The translations under genes were made by a program, and so were the position numbers. This document shows, one piece after another, positions 66-8,116 of a stretch of 8,116 bases of DNA; the first letter of the stretch is position 1; every line of letters starts with the position of its first letter. This DNA comes from a virus. Lineage: Duplodnaviria > Heunggongvirae > Uroviricota > Caudoviricetes. The DNA lies in the IMG/VR virus record IMGVR_UViG_2622736468_000006, positions 1 through 8,116 of that record. One strand, given 5' to 3'. The notes below the pieces were generated by a model that was not told the origin of the DNA, did no database searches, and saw only the letters and a program-made list of their open reading frames with translations.

Positions 66-569
66 TTATTGATAGTGTTTTATGTTCAGATAATGCCCGA
101 TGACCTTGTCATGCAGCTCCACCGATTTTGAGAACGACAGTGACTTCCGTCCCAGCCTTGCCAGATGTTGTCTCAGATTCAGATTATGTCGCTCAATGCG
201 CTGAGTGTAACGCTTGCTGATTACGTGCAGCTTTCCCTTCAGGCGGGATTCATACAGCGGCCAGCCATCCGTCATCCATATCACCACGTCAAAGGGTGAC
301 AGCAGGCTCATAAGACACCCCAGCGTCGCCATAGTGCGTTCACCGAATACGTGCGCAACAACCGTCTTCCGGAGCCTGTCATACGCGTAAAACAGCCAGC
401 GCTGGCGCGATTTAGCCCCGACATAGCCCCACTGTTCGTCCATTTCCGCGCAGACGATGACGTCACTGCCCGGCTGTATGCGCGAGGTTACCGACTGCGG
501 CCTGAGTTTTTTAAGTGACGTAAAATCGTGTTGAGGCCAACGCCCATAATGCGGGCTGTTGCCCGGCAT
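66..569 (-). CDS. insB: IS1 InsB frame, the catalytic part of InsAB' transposase reached by a -1 frameshift from insA
   Basis: The 167-aa translation matches canonical IS1 InsB and overlaps the insA 3' end in the -1 frame. Confidence 0.95.
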
Positions 570-763
570 CCAACGCCATTCATGGCCATATCAATGATTT
601 TCTGGTGCGTACCGGGTTGAGAAGCGGTGTAAGTGAACTGCAGTTGCCATGTTTTACGGCAGTGAGAGCAGAGATAGCGCTGATGTCCGGCGGTGCTTTT
701 GCCGTTACGCACCACCCCGTCAGTAGCTGAACAGGAGGGACAGCTGATAGAAACAGAAGCCAC
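488..763 (-). CDS. insA: IS1 InsA, the transposition inhibitor / DNA-binding N-terminal part of the InsAB' transposase
   Basis: The 91-aa translation ([32 protein letters not shown]...) is the canonical InsA with its zinc-finger-like CxxC...CxxC and HTH. The start codon is GTG on the minus strand. Confidence 0.95.
506..514 (-). other. IS1 programmed -1 ribosomal frameshift motif (A6C slippery run) in the insA/insB overlap
   Basis: Plus strand reads GTTTTTTAA, i.e. TTAAAAAAC on the coding strand, inside the insA-insB overlap. This is the known IS1 frameshift site. Confidence 0.85.
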
Positions 764-1066: not shown

Positions 1067-2239
1067 TTAACTGAAAAATTTTATCGATCCAGAAACCGCA
1101 GGCGGGTGCGGTGTAGTGCCGTTTTTGTCTGCGAAAGATTTATTTTGTCTGCATGTGGCTACCTCAGAGCGTCGCTGTGAATTTGATCTTATTGCGGTGT
1201 CGCAGTGGTTATCCTGCGGCGTACATCCATCCCATTGCGATACAAAGCCACCTTTGCTGTGTACTGCGTGGAAACGTGATGGCGCAGTGATGGTGTAAAA
1301 CTCACCGGCCAGCCCTTCTTCATTGGCCATATCTTCAAACCCTCGCATTCTTACCATTAGTTCACATCGACGGATCGCCGGATTTGCAACGCTGCGGTGC
1401 ACCATGCTGTCCAGTGCAATGCGCAGCCCCTCATCATTCAGCAGTTCAAACTTTTTAAAGAACTCCAGATTCCGCTTTTTCTGGTCTATCCATTCACCCA
1501 GTGTTTTGCGGGATACATAAGCGCTGGCCGCTTTTTGTACCTGTCCCACCGCGATGGCCATATGTTCGCGCTGTGTATCACGCGCACGTTTAAGACGCAG
1601 GTACCACCATTCCGGCGCCATCATGCGCAGTATCCCTGATTCCGCCTTACGCATTTCCAGTTGGCCTTCATTTGCTTCGTGTTCAACCCAGTACGGCGGC
1701 TGGTTATTCAGCATCAGGCAACACGCACAAAGATGGCGGTATGATTCCAGGGTGCGGCGGTGCAGCTCTCTGGCGTCGTCAGTGCCGGAATCAAACTGTT
1801 CGGTGAAGTCATAAAGTGACTGGGAAATCCAGCCAGATACCTGGTCAGCCAGTTTTTTAAGATCAGGACGGTCTAGTGACAGCAAGCGTTCCAGCGACTT
1901 ACCAAAAGGAAGATCAGCAGCGTCAGCGGCCAGCGAGTAACGCGCAGCCACTTTGCGCAGACGTGGCAATACACTCCCGCCGATAGTTTGGCGCAGGAAT
2001 GTATTGGCACGGCGACGCCCGTCACGACCAGCAAACAGCTTTTCGTAACGACGGCCAAAATACCCGGCTAACCAGTCGGGTATCTCATGAAGGTACTGTG
2101 AGCGCCATTCGTAATCCTGCGGGTTAACCGACCACAGGCGGCGCTCGGTGATCGTGGCGTCTGTAGGCGTACCCGGTGCGAACGTTTCACGCCGCCAGGT
2201 ATCGACGGAGTGATGTTGGCCATTGGCTACAGGAGTCAT
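1067..2239 (-). pseudogene. gpA-like rolling-circle replication initiator (P2/186 A family), N-terminal ~390 codons only; likely truncated
   Basis: ATG at 2239-2237 overlaps the dam stop as ATGA. The translation contains FYTITAPSRFHAVH, resembling rolling-circle initiator motifs 1 and 2, but no paired-tyrosine (Y..KY) catalytic motif. It ends at 1067, about half the length of characterised P2/186 A proteins (roughly 700-760 aa), and the DNA downstream (819-1066) has stops in every frame. Confidence 0.6.
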
Positions 2240-3096
2240 GCGCAAGCCATCGCTATAGAATCAAGCGGCGACTTCAGAATTAACTCTGCGGCAACTTTCT
2301 GGCTTGCAGCTGCGGCACCAACACTACGCGGGGCATTAATGCGAACGGCTTCAAATCCGGCGTACAGGTAATGCACCATTTCCAGATCGGCATTAGAGGC
2401 CACAACCGGTACACCTTTTCTGGCCAGACGGCGCAACTTACGCGCCAGCCTCCCCTGATCCATGTGCGAAAAACCGCGCTCATGGTAAGCGGTGAAATTG
2501 TCGCTTTCAGTCAGATAAGGCGGATCACAGTAAACAACGTCATTCCCGTCCCGAACCAAATCGAGCGTTTCTGAATAGTGGGCAGTAATGAACGTTGCGC
2601 GTTTTGCTTTTTCAGCAAAGGCGCGGATTTCATCAGCGGGGAAATAAGGCTTTTTGTACTTACCGAACGGGACGTTGAACTGGCCTCGACGGTTATACCG
2701 GCACAGACCATTGAAGCAGTGCCGGTTCAGGTACAGGAAACGCGCAGCAGCTTCTACAGATTCCGAACCAAAGGATTTACCTGACTGGTTGAAAGCATCC
2801 CGCACAGCATAATAGAAAACTGCGCGGCTTTCTTCATCACCTAACGAACCGGCAGTAAACAGACTTTCCAGCTCATTGAGCAGCGCATCAGTGTGATACG
2901 CCATCGCCTTATAAAGATTAACCAGATCAGGATTCACATCTGCGATCAGATACTCGTCATAATCTGTATTCATCATGACGGCGCAGGAACCTGCGAACGG
3001 TTCAACCAAGCGTTTACCTTCTGGAAGGTGCGGACGCAGCTTAGGCATAAGGCGGGCTTTGCTACCCACCCATTTAAGCGGAGTTTTAACGGCCAT
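2236..3096 (-). CDS. dam: DNA adenine methyltransferase, Dam family (orphan N6-adenine MTase, predicted GATC specificity)
   Basis: 286 aa from ATG 3096-3094, preceded by GGAGG five nt upstream. Motifs: EPFAGSCAV (SAM-binding motif I), LYLNR...NGLCRYN...[14 protein letters not shown], and the catalytic VYCDPPY (motif IV). Collinear with E. coli Dam over its whole length. Confidence 0.9.
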
Positions 3097-3415
3097 AATG
3101 ACCTCCGCCAACTAACGACTCTGTTACACCGTTTGAAATGATGTATTCCAGCACTTCAAGCGGTGACAGCGAACGGATAGATAAAACCACCCAATTTTCG
3201 GCATCAGCGATAATTTCATTCACCGGCAAAACATGGGTGATAACTGCCGCCCACTCTCGCCCGGTGTATTTCCCGTGCTTCCACTCGCACAATGAAAGAA
3301 CATCACCGGTTTTATACCCGCGATCATTTTTACGCAGCTCGGCCTTTTTCTGACCAGCCACCACAGCATTAAGGTATTTCGGCGCAATTTTTACCGCATG
3401 GATTTTGATTGTCAT
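3086..3415 (-). CDS. ASCH-domain protein (PUA-like fold, DUF3850-like), function unknown
   Basis: 109 aa from ATG 3415-3413, which overlaps the exonuclease stop as ATGA. Carries the ASCH signature GxKxxExR (AGQKKAELR) followed by NDRGYKTGD. The track start at 3466 is a TTG and was not used. Confidence 0.65.
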
Positions 3416-4008
3416 TTTGCACCGCCTTGCGCTAAAGCTTTGATGACACCTAATGTCATTTTGCAATCAGCTAAAGCACGGTGTGCCTTCCCCTCGATCA
3501 CAACTCCTTCATGCGCGGCGGCATCAACTAACTTATGCCATTTATAACCGTGATATTTCCCCGGCTCGCCACGATATTCTGCATATAGTTTCATTGCGCA
3601 AACAGAATGAGCAGCAAGCATCCATGGCGCACCTTCAGAAGGTCTTCCATTCAATGCGTAGGTCTGACGAATTAACCGGAGATCATAATCGGCGTTATAG
3701 ATAACAAAGCCAAAACGTCTAATAAGTTCTTCCACTGCGCCGCATATATCTGTCCACGCAGGAGCATAGGCAACCATTTCATTTGTGATCCCATGAATGG
3801 CAATTGCTTCATCAGGAATAGGCTTAGTAGGTTTAACAAGCGTGTTAAGCAGAATAAATCCATGGCTATCAATGATGCATATTTCTACTATTTCTGCATC
3901 ATCACCCAGCCCCGTGGTTTCGGTATCAATAAATAGGCGATCATCGTCAAGCCACTGTTGTGCTAACAGGCTGATAGAATACTGCAATTGCTTTGTATTC
4001 AATTCCAT
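3412..4008 (-). CDS. DnaQ-like 3'-5' exonuclease, DEDDh family
   Basis: 198 aa from ATG 4008-4006, with AGGAGG six nt upstream. Exo I motif FIDTETTGL, Exo [12 protein letters not shown], Exo III HRALADC. The track start at 4029 is a TTG and was not used. Confidence 0.85.
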
Positions 4009-4232
4009 GCTGCACCTCCTTTGCTGCAAATCGCCGCTGCTTCTTCGCGGATTAACTCAACGATTTCCGCTGCGCTTAAACCTTCATTGGCTGCATGAGT
4101 AGCCAGCTTATCCAGACGGGTGGAACACAGATCAGCAGTTGCGGCTTTACCTTCCTGCGTGGCTTTGGTGAGCATGGCCAGCAGGTCGGTGCCTGATTTT
4201 GTTGCGGGTAAATCCTGACGTGTCATGTGCAT
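3999..4232 (-). CDS. Hypothetical phage protein, 77 aa, Ala-rich
   Basis: ATG at 4232-4230 with GAGGA seven nt upstream. Its 3' end overlaps the exonuclease start by 10 nt. No recognisable motif. Confidence 0.5.
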   Translation of the reverse strand: MHMTRQDLPATKSGTDLLAMLTKATQEGKAATADLCSTRLDKLATHAANEGLSAAEIVELIREEAAAICSKGGAAWN

Positions 4233-4299: not shown

Positions 4300-4701
4300 T
4301 TAGTGAAAAGTGGGTTGTACTGTGGCGGCTGAGTAGTTCGGTGCCGGAATCAGGTGCAGCTCATAGGTTATCCGCCACCACTCCTGGATCAGCGCTTTTA
4401 TCTCGCCAACTCCCAACGCCCCGGCTGTATAGAAAATTGCACGAATCCCCGCCAGCGCTTCTATCTGGGCTTCTTTGCTTTTCGCTTCGCGATATACGCA
4501 GCACCAGAAAGCAGCATTGATCGCCAGCCAGTGACGCGGATTTGTCATGTGTTCAGTGTCGTTGAAGAAGAACGGATGCAAAGCGATACGCCCATTTTTA
4601 CTGGTGCTTTTCTCTGCAAACGCTAATGCGTAGTTATGCGGGACGCCCCACACAGCCAGCTCTGCCCCTAGTGATTTACCTTCAACCGAAATAATGGACA
4701 T
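4300..4701 (-). CDS. Hypothetical phage protein, 133 aa
   Basis: ATG at 4701-4699 overlaps the upstream stop as ATGA, with AGGGG eight nt upstream. The ORF fills the whole interval without internal stops. No family recognised from sequence alone. Confidence 0.55.
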   Translation of the reverse strand: MSIISVEGKSLGAELAVWGVPHNYALAFAEKSTSKNGRIALHPFFFNDTEHMTNPRHWLAINAAFWCCVYREAKSKEAQIEALAGIRAIFYTAGALGVGEIKALIQEWWRITYELHLIPAPNYSAATVQPTFH

Positions 4702-5129
4702 CAGTGATTCCCCTGTTGCTGTAACTTCTGGACAATATGAGGTGCAATCACCATCTGCACCCCGCTGCTGCTATAAATTGGATGAACCTTCTTGATTGGG
4801 CGGTTCGCGGTACGTTTCGAAAAATCGCTGTCACGTAAACTGCCGAAACCTTCAAACGTTAACCGCGCCCGTGAAATGCCCTGGCGCAGTTGAATCATGT
4901 CCCGATAGCCCAGGCGTTCATAAAGCTCACGCCAGCAGCACTTGCTTAAATGGGCTTTAAATGCCCCGGTACCAGAAGTAACCGCAGCAGCATGAAGTAC
5001 TACGCCGCGCCACTCCGGTGTCAAGTTGTCCCACCATTCAGCGGCCTCGCTGCTTTCGCTGAAGTATTTGCGGCGGATCTGTTTTAAATGCTCCAGCCCG
5101 CGCTTTTGCTGTTCCTGGCTAATCGCCAT
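4701..5129 (-). CDS. Hypothetical phage protein, 142 aa, basic
   Basis: ATG at 5129-5127, immediately preceded on the coding strand by a G9 homopolymer. The stop overlaps the next ATG. No family recognised. Confidence 0.55.
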   Translation of the reverse strand: MAISQEQQKRGLEHLKQIRRKYFSESSEAAEWWDNLTPEWRGVVLHAAAVTSGTGAFKAHLSKCCWRELYERLGYRDMIQLRQGISRARLTFEGFGSLRDSDFSKRTANRPIKKVHPIYSSSGVQMVIAPHIVQKLQQQGNH

Positions 5130-5133
5130 AGCG

Positions 5134-5142
5134 CCCCCCCCC
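5134..5142. repeat. Homopolymeric tract, C9 on the plus strand (G9 on the coding strand)
   Basis: Nine consecutive C at 5134-5142. On the minus strand this reads TAG-GGGGGGGG-CGCT-ATG, lying between the stop of the 57-aa ORF and the start of the 142-aa ORF. Confidence 0.9.
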
Positions 5143-5315
5143 TATAGCCCCATCAGACGACGCCACCACGGGCGACGCGGCTGCTGGCCATTGAATTTGT
5201 ACATGTGGCCAGGGTTCCAGCGCTGACCGTTCGGCAGTTCAATCCAGCCCGTTGAACCACTGGGCAATTGCATGGCCGGTGATTCGTTTTTCAGGTAAGT
5301 GACAAACGCTTTCAT
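5142..5315 (-). CDS. Small hypothetical protein, 57 aa, in the position occupied by fil-like genes in 186-type phages
   Basis: Not in the supplied track. ATG at 5315-5313 with GGGAGA upstream, directly after the cII stop. Translation: MKAFVTYLKNESPAMQLPSGSTGWIELPNGQRWNPGHMYKFNGQQPRRPWWRRLMGL. Stop is TAG at 5144-5142. Confidence 0.45.
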   Translation of the reverse strand: MKAFVTYLKNESPAMQLPSGSTGWIELPNGQRWNPGHMYKFNGQQPRRPWWRRLMGL

Positions 5316-5324
5316 GGTTCTCCC

Positions 5325-5828
5325 TCACATCAGGCCGGTGGCGTTGGTTGTGACCAGATCCACCGCAGCGGCCAAAACCGGCGCAGAGTGAATACGGCTT
5401 TCAACGGTATAAGCCAGCACGGATAAGCTACGGATTGCATCTCGGGCGCGATCCAGAATTTGAGTACGGCGGGCGGCGGTCATATGGCCAGCTGATACGG
5501 CTTCCCCAGCAATCGCGCCCACACTGGCTGTGGCGCTCAGTGCACACAGTTGTATGTTGCCTTCTGTTGCATTGTTCACCGGTACGGATGGAAGGCAGTT
5601 AATCTGCCCCAGCATCCCATCCAGTAAACGCGCATCTTCGGTGTAATCCGTGATAGCCAAAAGTTCATCACAGGTCAGGCGGTGCGGTTGCGCTGGGTTC
5701 AGTTTATTACGCAGGATCTGCGGCCTCATACCAACGGCAGCGGCCACATCTTCAAGATTGTGCTCAATTGCAAATGCTCGGCAAGCCGCATCAAAGTGCG
5801 CATGTTTAGAGGTCTGGTAATCAAACAT
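5325..5828 (-). CDS. cII: Phage regulatory protein CII (186 CII / CP76 family), lysogeny-establishment activator
   Basis: 167 aa from ATG 5828-5826, with GGGAGAGG upstream. The N-terminus (MFDYQTSKHAHFDAACRAFA...ILRNKLNPAQPH) matches my recollection of the 186 CII family. It is the second gene of the lytic operon, after the cox/apl-like gene. Confidence 0.75.
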   Translation of the reverse strand: MFDYQTSKHAHFDAACRAFAIEHNLEDVAAAVGMRPQILRNKLNPAQPHRLTCDELLAITDYTEDARLLDGMLGQINCLPSVPVNNATEGNIQLCALSATASVGAIAGEAVSAGHMTAARRTQILDRARDAIRSLSVLAYTVESRIHSAPVLAAAVDLVTTNATGLM

Positions 5829-5858: not shown

Positions 5859-6080
5859 TTACGCGTTAAGCGAAATGTCACATTCGCTTAAAGCCTGAAT
5901 AGTGAGCGCGGCCATGTTGACTTCGACCAGGCCTTTCTTCTGCTTACCCTTCGGCTTAATAGGTAATTTCCCGTATTCGATCAGGTTCCTGGCGGTTTCT
6001 TTGTTGGTACCAGTACGGCGGCAATACTCGTCTAAAGGCAGGTATGGCTCTGGGATGATGATTGTAATGTTCGGACGCAT
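5859..6080 (-). CDS. Cox/Apl-type small HTH protein (excisionase and switch regulator)
   Basis: 73 aa from ATG 6080-6078, with GGAG eight nt upstream. It is the first gene of the minus-strand operon, divergent from the repressor gene. The segment IPEPYLPLDEYCRRTGTNKETARNLIEYGKLP resembles the Cox/Apl N-terminal HTH. The track's longer version starts at a GTG at 6140. Confidence 0.6.
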   Translation of the reverse strand: MRPNITIIIPEPYLPLDEYCRRTGTNKETARNLIEYGKLPIKPKGKQKKGLVEVNMAALTIQALSECDISLNA

Positions 6081-6199
6081 GAGGCAAACTCCATAAGTTA
6101 ACCTGTACGGCAATACAGGGCTGTAACTGTCAATATTCACTTAAACCTACAAAGCGGAGTTTAAACTCACTTTGCGCAAGATTTCAAGGTAAAACTTTC
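6081..6199. promoter_or_regulatory. Lysis-lysogeny switch region between the cox/apl-like and cI-like genes; expected to hold the lytic and lysogenic promoters and their operators
   Basis: 119-bp intergenic region between divergent start codons. Contains a CTGT-N8-ACAG motif, a TTGACA hexamer on the minus strand (6133-6128), a 10-bp direct repeat and a 12-bp palindrome. Exact promoter hexamers could not be assigned with confidence. Confidence 0.6.
6103..6118. promoter_or_regulatory. Candidate LexA (SOS) box, or repressor operator: CTGTACGGCAATACAG
   Basis: Fits the LexA core CTGT-N8-ACAG with dyad-symmetric CTGTA/TACAG arms; located 23 bp upstream of the cox/apl-like start. Resembles the E. 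coli sulA box (CTGTACATCCATACAG) except in the central four positions. Confidence 0.35.
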
Positions 6200-6778
6200 G
6201 TGAACCTACAAATTGAGTTTTCTCATGGCGGAGCTGAGGTACTAGATAGAGTTATCCAAGCGTATGGATTCAACACAAAACTAGCCCTAGCCGAACATCT
6301 TGATATAGCAAGCAGCAGTCTGGCTAACCGGTATAAGAGGGATTTTTTTCCAGCTGATATCGTTGTTAGATGTATGGCTGAAACAGGAGCTACTCTGGAA
6401 TGGCTTGCGACTGGACAAGGTAGAAAGTTTAACGATGACGAATTAGACATCATGAAATTGCCACGCAAGAAGATTGTGGACGGAAAACTCTATGAGTCTG
6501 GTTTCCTAATGCTCGATAAGGTTACTTTTTTACCTGGCAAACCTTTACCGCAGAATCCTATCTGTGTGATTGATAACACAATGCAATACATTGTTGATCA
6601 ACACTTTACTGAAGTTTATGACGATGTTTGGCTTGTCGAAGTTGAAGGTAAAACCAGCGTTAGAACACTAACACGCATCCCTGTGGGAAAAGTTAGAGTA
6701 AGCGGCGTAGGTATGGCTTTTGACTGCGGTATTGACGATATAAAAATCATCGGCCGCATTGTTCTGACGATTGAATGA
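6200..6778 (+). CDS. cI: Immunity repressor, 186 CI-like (N-terminal HTH, no LexA-type peptidase domain evident)
   Basis: 192 aa from GTG 6200, the only in-frame start upstream of the HTH segment KLALAEHLDIASSSLANRYKRD. Sits directly upstream of int with its stop 1 nt before the int ATG, and divergent from the lytic operon. Length and arrangement match 186 CI. Confidence 0.75.
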   Translation: MNLQIEFSHGGAEVLDRVIQAYGFNTKLALAEHLDIASSSLANRYKRDFFPADIVVRCMAETGATLEWLATGQGRKFNDDELDIMKLPRKKIVDGKLYESGFLMLDKVTFLPGKPLPQNPICVIDNTMQYIVDQHFTEVYDDVWLVEVEGKTSVRTLTRIPVGKVRVSGVGMAFDCGIDDIKIIGRIVLTIE

Positions 6779-6779
6779 A

Positions 6780-7820
6780 ATGAGTGTTCGTAAACTTCCG
6801 ACAGGCGAATGGATCGCCGACTTCTACACCGTCAACCGTAGTAATGGTAAGAACGGGAAGCGCATACGTAAAAAATTTGCCACGAAGGGGGAAGCCCTGG
6901 CATTTGAGAACCATACGCTTCAGAAAGTAGACAATGCGCCCTGGCTGGGTGAAGGGAAGGACAAACGAACTTTAATAGACCTGATCACAATGTGGTATGA
7001 ACGCCACGGAGTAGCTTTGCGCAATGGTCAAAAGCGTAAAGACGCTATGACCTGGGCGGCAGAGTGCATGGGATTCCCGCTAGCTACAGAGTTTAATGCC
7101 CAGCTGTTCACGGCCTACCGCGCAAAAAGGCTTGATGGGCATTATGCCCGCACTAGCAGAGTATCCAAGGTTTCCCCGAAAACAATGAACCTTGAACATG
7201 CTTACTTCCTGGCTATGTTCAACGAGCTGAAACGAATCGGGGAATGGTCAGCCCCCAACCCACTGGAAAACGTCAGACAGTATCGTACTGATGAAACCGA
7301 AATGGCTTTCCTCACTGCTGAAGAAATTGAGCGGCTTTTGCTGGAATGCAAACGAAGCAAAGTAAAATACTTGGAGCTAGTCGTAAAAATCTGTCTTGCG
7401 ACCGGCGCAAGATGGAATGAAGCGGCAACGCTGAAAAGCTCTCAGATCGCAGGCGATAAAGTTACGTTCGTTAAAACCAAAGGGAAGCGCAACAGAACAA
7501 TCCCCCTTGATGATGAACTTCTATCCGAATTGCCTGAAACGAAAGGCGCTCTGTTCCCCAAACCCTGCTATAACGCGTTCCGCTCTGCTTTGGAACGCGC
7601 AGGCATTGAACTCCCCTCCGGCCAGCTTACCCATGTACTGCGCCATACATTTGCCAGCCACTTTATGATGAACGGCGGGAACATTCTGGTTCTGCAAAAA
7701 ATTCTCGGCCACGCTGACATCACTATGACAATGCGTTATGCCCATTTCGCCCCAAGCCACCTTGAAGATGCCGTGCGACTTAACCCCTTAAAATGTCGCA
7801 AAAATGTCGCGATAGCTTAG
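6780..7820 (+). CDS. int: Tyrosine recombinase / integrase, P2 Int family
   Basis: 346 aa from ATG 6780 (the track begins at TTG 6771). C-terminal catalytic signature present: LATGARWNEAA, HVLRHTFASH, LQKILGH, MRYAHFAP (catalytic Tyr). The N-terminus (MSVRKLPTGEW...GKRIRKKF) is collinear with P2 Int. Confidence 0.95.
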   Translation: MSVRKLPTGEWIADFYTVNRSNGKNGKRIRKKFATKGEALAFENHTLQKVDNAPWLGEGKDKRTLIDLITMWYERHGVALRNGQKRKDAMTWAAECMGFPLATEFNAQLFTAYRAKRLDGHYARTSRVSKVSPKTMNLEHAYFLAMFNELKRIGEWSAPNPLENVRQYRTDETEMAFLTAEEIERLLLECKRSKVKYLELVVKICLATGARWNEAATLKSSQIAGDKVTFVKTKGKRNRTIPLDDELLSELPETKGALFPKPCYNAFRSALERAGIELPSGQLTHVLRHTFASHFMMNGGNILVLQKILGHADITMTMRYAHFAPSHLEDAVRLNPLKCRKNVAIA

Positions 7821-7987: not shown

Positions 7988-8116
7988 ATGAATGAGTTCA
8001 AGAGGTGTATGCGCGTGTTTAGTCATTCTCCCTTTAAAGTACGGTTAATGCTGCTCTCTATGTTGTGCGATATGGTCAACAACAAACCGCAGCAAGATAA
8101 ACCTTCCGATAAATAG
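7988..8116 (+). CDS. Small hypothetical protein, 42 aa (MNEFKRCMRVFSHSPFKVRLMLLSMLCDMVNNKPQQDKPSDK)
   Basis: ATG at 7988 preceded by AGGAGG (7978-7983, 4-nt spacer). Ends with TAG exactly at the window end. Not in the supplied track because it is under the length cutoff. Confidence 0.4.
   Translation: MNEFKRCMRVFSHSPFKVRLMLLSMLCDMVNNKPQQDKPSDK

Follow-up and report, generated by a model that had tools for sequence, protein, structure and literature searches.

A 57-codon gene behind cII of a defective 186-type prophage of Escherichia coli: assignment to the Fil family and a probable role in blocking host division

The open reading frame located directly behind cII in the stretch of DNA analysed here (8,116 nucleotides, hereafter the window) is best read as fil of a defective 186-type prophage, coding for an early lytic protein that would be expressed from pR, translated just after cII and used to block division of the host cell. 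We put the probability of this reading at roughly 60%. The gene is already known, being named in both RefSeq and Pfam. The present analysis resolves Fil into two modules, an N-terminal core and an Arg/Trp motif at the C-terminus, each conserved in its own right and the latter being absent from Fil of coliphage 186. This two-module split supplies concrete mutants for finding the target of Fil.

The fil coding sequence (5142..5315, minus strand) runs from an ATG at 5315-5313 to a TAG at 5144-5142 and encodes the 57-aa product MKAFVTYLKNESPAMQLPSGSTGWIELPNGQRWNPGHMYKFNGQQPRRPWWRRLMGL, in agreement with the initial annotation, which had proposed an ATG-started frame of this length after cII. The same annotation saw no recognisable domain in the product, a statement that does not survive comparison with Pfam: PF10893 (Phage_186_Fil, formerly DUF2724) is matched at 38.5 bits against a curated cut-off of 25 (E = 9.5e-10), with residues 1-37 aligned on profile positions 1-34 of 56. 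The protein also matches phrog_7623 (E = 1.6e-29) and phrog_816, a 'cell division inhibitor' family (E = 5e-8), and PF10893 was present in 76 of the 76 homologues recovered in a search of 5.8 billion proteins. It is 100% identical to RefSeq WP_000643378.1, found in complete E. coli genomes under the PGAP name 'phage filamentation protein Fil family protein'. PGAP gives a Fil-family name to the ORF in every E. coli genome carrying it, and RefSeq phage records name it either DUF2724 protein or cell division inhibitor. Sequence comparison assigns the ORF to fil, of the Fil family (PF10893), as an already annotated gene and not as a new occupant of the fil slot. Its description as unannotated holds for the ORF track supplied with the window and fails for PGAP and RefSeq, which annotate the identical protein. 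The gene was missed solely through the length cut-off, and ORF tracks with a floor of 60 aa hide known phage genes. Beyond the Fil family, the searches were negative within their respective limits. Up to E ≤ 1, PF10893 was the sole Pfam family matched, and hence the lambda CIII family was not; PADLOC yielded 0 families at E ≤ 0.01 for the fil protein; NCBIfam gave no match for the ORF; Rfam contained no family matching the region; and a profile search of PDB sequences with Fil reached a best E of 0.68.

The closest relatives share both the protein and its neighborhood. Escherichia phage ESSI2_ev015, of Quadragintavirus type, encodes a protein (YP_009877600.1) that is 98% identical to the window Fil, and the loci of the WP_000643378.1 and ev015 alleles have in common with the window the order cII-fil-orf142-orf133-DUF2732. 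Copies of the WP_000643378.1 type differ from the window only in the length of a poly-G tract and at a few synonymous sites. In sister alleles of 64-66 and 75 aa, the tail is extended or replaced.

Length does little to distinguish fil from background. ORFs of 57 aa or more number 37 in the window, compared with 23.7 ± 4.3 in shuffled sequences, and a length of 57 aa is by itself not above chance. What lifts the ORF above chance is its conservation, visible in the ratio of substitutions, the codon-position pattern and the intact frame. Loci from E. coli (12) and several from phages were compared. Against the other E. coli 57-aa alleles, dN/dS is 0.005-0.10 (Nei-Gojobori counting); the window allele differs from that of locus L010 by 24 synonymous and 1 non-synonymous changes, and from that of locus L009 by 22 and 2, respectively. 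Variable sites among the 57-aa alleles are distributed 5/1/28 over codon positions 1, 2 and 3. Frame-disrupting indels in syntenic relatives, initially put forward as a possible refutation of the gene, were looked for and none was found: the ORF is intact at the fil position in every fetched relative, and the length differences of 1-4 nt all fall in the poly-G spacer past the stop. We conclude that fil codes for a protein and that purifying selection on it is strong. That it would instead be a chance ORF or a non-coding spacer, conserved on account of the other strand or of an RNA element, has a virtually negligible probability. Frames of 57 aa are common by chance and a 66-aa ORF overlaps on the plus strand, but the third-position-dominated substitutions in the minus frame, the dN/dS values down to 0.005, the existence of a protein-level family across many genera and the absence of a match in Rfam all oppose this reading, which the codon-position pattern and the occurrence of the family in many species together refute. 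The overlapping plus-strand ORF (5026..5226) is likewise excluded as a real feature by the minus-frame codon-position pattern. The view that the 57-aa form arose recently from the 64-75-aa forms, by truncation or as a pseudogene, is also rejected, because 57-aa alleles separated by dS values of up to ~1.5 share an identical tail and stop.

The start signals of fil are embedded in the end of cII. At the minus-strand junction, the sequence reads ...CTG ATG TGA GGGAGAACC ATG, which leaves 9 nt between the cII stop and the fil ATG, and the Shine-Dalgarno region GAGGGAGA (5319..5326, minus strand) overlaps the last 2 bases of the cII TGA (5327-5325). The GGGAGA pointed out initially as a ribosome-binding site right after the cII stop is present and abuts it (5324-5319), though the part conserved among relatives is GAGG, which overlaps the TGA 7 nt ahead of the fil ATG and is kept in most fetched relatives; the GAGA part differs among them. 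The cII-fil spacer measures 9 nt in all but a few fetched relatives, and cII-fil synteny holds in all fetched E. coli and phage loci. A Shine-Dalgarno region overlapping the cII stop, combined with a constant 9-nt spacer, suggests that the translation of cII and fil is coupled. Such coupling would not be universal in the family, since cII and fil lie ~300 nt apart at two Brenneria loci (L034 and L035), and at two others (L036 and L037, from Pectobacterium and Brenneria) the 1.5 kb ahead of a divergent fil revealed no CII homologue. At its other end, fil is separated from the start of the next gene by a spacer with a poly-G tract (5130..5141, minus strand). The tract counts 9 G including the G of TAG (5134-5142, read as 9 C on the plus strand); among relatives, the spacer ranges from 8 to 12 nt and the length of the tract varies. 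In the window, fil and the following 142-aa ORF (start at 5129) are in one frame with only the TAG between them, and in the longer Fil isoforms (64-75 aa) the reading frame continues across the poly-G tract (GG-RYG-D/H) as far as an overlap with the ATG of the next gene.

The tight association with cII also lends itself to a different explanation, namely that the Fil-family protein modulates the CII-degrading proteases FtsH and RseP in a manner resembling lambda CIII, or otherwise tunes the choice between lysis and lysogeny, filamentation being a by-product of overexpression. Consistent with this, nearly all relatives have the 9-nt spacer between cII and fil together with the overlapping Shine-Dalgarno region, and 19 of the 21 species loci have a CII homologue ahead of fil. 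In addition, the two proteases that degrade CII of 186, FtsH and RseP, are both membrane proteins (PMC7708051), and Fil is small with a basic or hydrophobic C-terminus, as in other small membrane-acting regulators. We nevertheless consider this explanation distinctly unlikely, given that the Pfam scan revealed no similarity to lambda CIII, that, according to the 186 literature, the phage has 'no CIII-like factor' and its lysogen yield does not change upon ftsH deletion, and that a block of division is the only phenotype on record for Fil. The more specific proposal that Fil is the 'missing' CIII-like partner of 186-type CII, targeted to the membrane and acting on FtsH/RseP or on their substrates with filamentation as a side effect, is very unlikely.

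The order of int and cI relative to apl, cII and fil in the window matches the layout of 186. The rightward early operon, here on the minus strand, starts with an apl/cox-like excisionase-repressor gene (5859..6080, minus strand, PGAP coordinates; phrog_575, E = 3e-27), followed by cII (5325..5828, minus strand; 167 aa; PF06892, E = 9e-47) and fil. A pR-like sigma-70 promoter candidate, TTGAAA-18-TAAACT (6158..6187, minus strand), identified as a consensus match only, sits between cI and apl, a position that corresponds to that of 186 pR. The gene for the CI repressor (6200..6778, plus strand; 192 aa) diverges from the fil operon, and int follows (6771-7820, plus strand). The small host gene mntS (7988-8116, plus strand) lies ~170 nt beyond the integrase gene, which places the attachment site of the prophage in the mntS region. 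E. coli strain 573 (L001), the nearest relative, has the same integrase-mntS arrangement, then opgE and ompX.

Downstream of fil, the operon continues on the minus strand with genes for proteins of 142 and 133 aa, DUF2732, a DEDDh exonuclease, DUF3850, a Dam methylase and a truncated A. The homologue of replication gene A (1067-2245, minus strand) codes for only 392 aa, compared with 694 aa for the 186 protein, and towards the C-terminus passes into unrelated sequence; in L001, gene A is a PGAP pseudogene abutting tail-gene fragments. Late genes are absent from the window. The shortened gene A and the L001 pseudogene abutting tail-gene fragments argue that the prophage is a defective remnant of 186 type (Peduoviridae) beside mntS in E. 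coli. As the prophage is a remnant, fil may be expressed rarely or never in this host.

The survival of an intact fil, identical to copies in other genomes, inside a prophage with a truncated A and no late genes in the window might be taken to mean that the gene is retained for the benefit of the host, as with dicB of Qin and kilR of Rac, to bring about a stress-expressed arrest of division or phage exclusion. Host roles are documented for cryptic-prophage division inhibitors, as for DicB (PMC6832061), and for cryptic prophages generally (PMC3105296). However, the same or ~98% identical alleles occur in apparently complete phages (ESSI2_ev015), so that phage function suffices to account for the purifying selection on fil. 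Furthermore, the intact cI should silence the operon, the clade of the window's fil is found in only 33 of 5426 complete E. coli genomes, unlike what domestication would produce, and PADLOC gave no match. Retention for the host is in our opinion unlikely.

Coliphage 186 provides the reference for the family. Its fil occupies the same slot right after cII, with a spacer of 7 nt instead of the 9 nt observed here, which bears out the initial placement of the ORF in the slot of the small 186-type genes fil and dhr. BLASTP against 186 Fil (NP_052282.1, 75 aa) aligned the N-terminal 33 aa at 36% identity (E = 2e-6), and hhalign gave a probability of 90.7%. A bridge protein, P0088, connects the two: it shares 60% identity with the first 35 residues of the window Fil and, over 63 aa, 46% with 186 Fil. 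Both proteins belong to the same small size class and share a homologous N-terminal core, yet their C-terminal halves do not align, that of 186 Fil ending in a hydrophobic stretch, SSGFLIIRIVHFVIKGVKHVTR, and that of the window Fil in PRRPWWRRLMGL. Homology to 186 Fil is confined to the N-terminal ~35 residues. The GenBank record of 186 carries on fil the note 'overexpression blocks cell division'. Since homology ends near residue 35 and the tails are unrelated, this phenotype might not carry over to the window Fil.

The two phages also differ behind fil. In 186, dhr overlaps the fil stop, whereas in the window two unrelated genes of unknown function stand in its place: one for 142 aa, directly downstream of fil (4701..5129, minus strand; phrog_33841), and a syntenic one for 133 aa (within 4300-5129, minus strand; phrog_3935). 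No similarity was found between the 142-aa protein and 186 Dhr. A Yersinia phage protein recorded as 'replication protein GpB' shares 29% identity with the 142-aa product. With no dhr homologue after fil in this lineage, a next ORF unlike 186 Dhr and a tail wholly different from that of 186 Fil, one could imagine that fil substitutes for the absent dhr, its product interfering with DNA replication of the host or with some other process instead of septation. The protein nonetheless matches Fil, no other family having been found, and its conserved core is the Fil core, which makes such a substitution highly improbable.

The Fil family is very small, 1.84 billion proteins containing no more than 33 representatives of it at 50% identity. 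When a single genome was scanned for each species, 21 species proved to carry it, every one of them belonging to the Enterobacterales, from the genera Buttiauxella, Enterobacter, Raoultella, Erwinia, Franconibacter, Siccibacter, Kluyvera, Kosakonia, Yersinia, Ewingella, Rahnella, Brenneria and Pectobacterium; the family is confined to 186-type prophages of this order. Its N-terminal core covers codons 1-35 (5211..5315, minus strand) and reads FVTYLK-SP-QL...GWIELPNGQRWNP in the window, with [FI]xxxLKxxSPxxQL...GWIELPNGQRW[NHQ]P as the consensus of the alignments, G23, W24 and G30 being invariant across the family. A variable linker connects this core to the C-terminal motif. AlphaFold2 models were of low confidence, with a pLDDT of 62.6 from a 64-sequence alignment and of 63.2 from a more diverse alignment of 36 sequences (pTM 0.22 for both); the two models tentatively agree on a short beta-hairpin at W24-W33 (WIELPNGQRW).

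The Arg/Trp-rich C-terminus remarked on in the initial annotation proved to be a genuine conserved motif, PRRPWWRRLMGL (codons 46-57; 5145..5180, minus strand), with the consensus P-R-R-P-W-W-[RF]-R-L-[MF]-G-[LI]. The strict pattern occurs in 55 of the 110 unique Fil members, near-variants are found in many others, and the motif persists in members from Yersinia, Ewingella, Rahnella and Brenneria whose overall identity is only ~48%. Over the last 14 codons, the window and L010 alleles differ by 4 synonymous and 0 non-synonymous changes; the tail motif of the 57-aa alleles is under purifying selection. The stop directly follows the motif in the 57-aa form, the subgroup of 75 aa has a longer tail that ends in RRLVGxIGGRYGD, and 186 Fil is devoid of the motif. 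Fil-family tails are strongly basic (median net charge +6).

The tail of the window Fil, RRPWWRRLMGL*, shows the same residue pattern as the C-terminus of MinD, KKGFLKRLFGG* (read from K-12), namely two basic residues, G or P, two hydrophobic residues, any residue, a basic residue, L, a hydrophobic residue and G, in both cases at the extreme C-terminus. The C-terminus of K-12 FtsA, WIKRLNSWLRKEF*, resembles it as well. The membrane-targeting sequence of MinD corresponds to residues 256-270 (PMC6803595). These are short motifs and not homologous domains, and the resemblance was noticed post hoc. In an amphipathic-helix test against shuffled sequences, Fil tails gave a median z of 0.19, and the hydrophobic moment of the motif was not above that of shuffles, but this statistic cannot discriminate even MinD, whose genuine membrane-targeting sequence also fails; only the 186 Fil tail scored (p ~0.01). 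We treat the possibility that the Fil tail is a membrane-targeting sequence of the MinD/FtsA type as a lead. A milder version of the CIII-like proposal discussed above would retain only a modular family, built of a fixed N-terminal hairpin and swappable membrane-targeting tails, in which RRPWWxRLMGL copies the solution of MinD and FtsA.

Taking fil as an early lytic gene directed against host division, its mode of action can be sketched as follows. In the lysogen, CI would keep fil silent, as the family annotation implies. Upon infection or derepression, transcription from pR would yield a message on which fil is translated right after cII, probably through coupling. In 186, a fil::lacZ translational fusion serves as a reporter of pR (PMC7708051), which indicates that the fil start of that phage is translated from pR transcripts. 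Fil would then block septation, again according to the family annotation, and cells would filament during phage development. Within the protein, two conserved modules joined by the variable linker may divide the task. First, the N-terminal core GWIELPNGQRWNP, probably a beta-hairpin and common to 186 Fil, could be the part that binds the target. Second, the cationic-aromatic tail RRPWWRRLMGL could keep Fil attached to the inner membrane face, close to the tethers of the Z-ring. Candidate targets are FtsZ, FtsA/ZipA, the Min system or a late divisome protein.

On function, nothing was found for any Fil protein beyond the one-line note of the 186 GenBank record. A survey of the literature on DUF2724, 186 fil and phage division inhibitors found no paper on the function or mechanism of Fil, apart from the use of the fil::lacZ reporter. 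Other small division inhibitors from early phage regions or cryptic prophages include Kil of lambda, KilR of Rac, DicB of Qin and Gp0.4 of T7, all of which filament E. coli when expressed and have defined targets. No sequence relation of Fil to any of these four proteins was detected, PF10893 being its sole Pfam match. Lambda Kil has been shown to act on FtsZ assembly (PMC3961180).

Two further features of the window lie outside the fil region. A cluster of the early operon (2236-4029, minus strand) encodes a 3'-5' exonuclease of the DEDDh type, a protein with DUF3850 and an orphan methyltransferase of Dam type; of these products, the first and the last match PADLOC models (DEDDh, PDC-S48 and oMTase). 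To the left of the prophage remnant, a complete IS1 of 768 bp (51-818), with its insA/insB ORFs at 66..763 on the minus strand, is inserted in non-phage DNA between the two copies of a direct duplication of 8 bp, CTCGTTAG, at 43-50 and 819-826.
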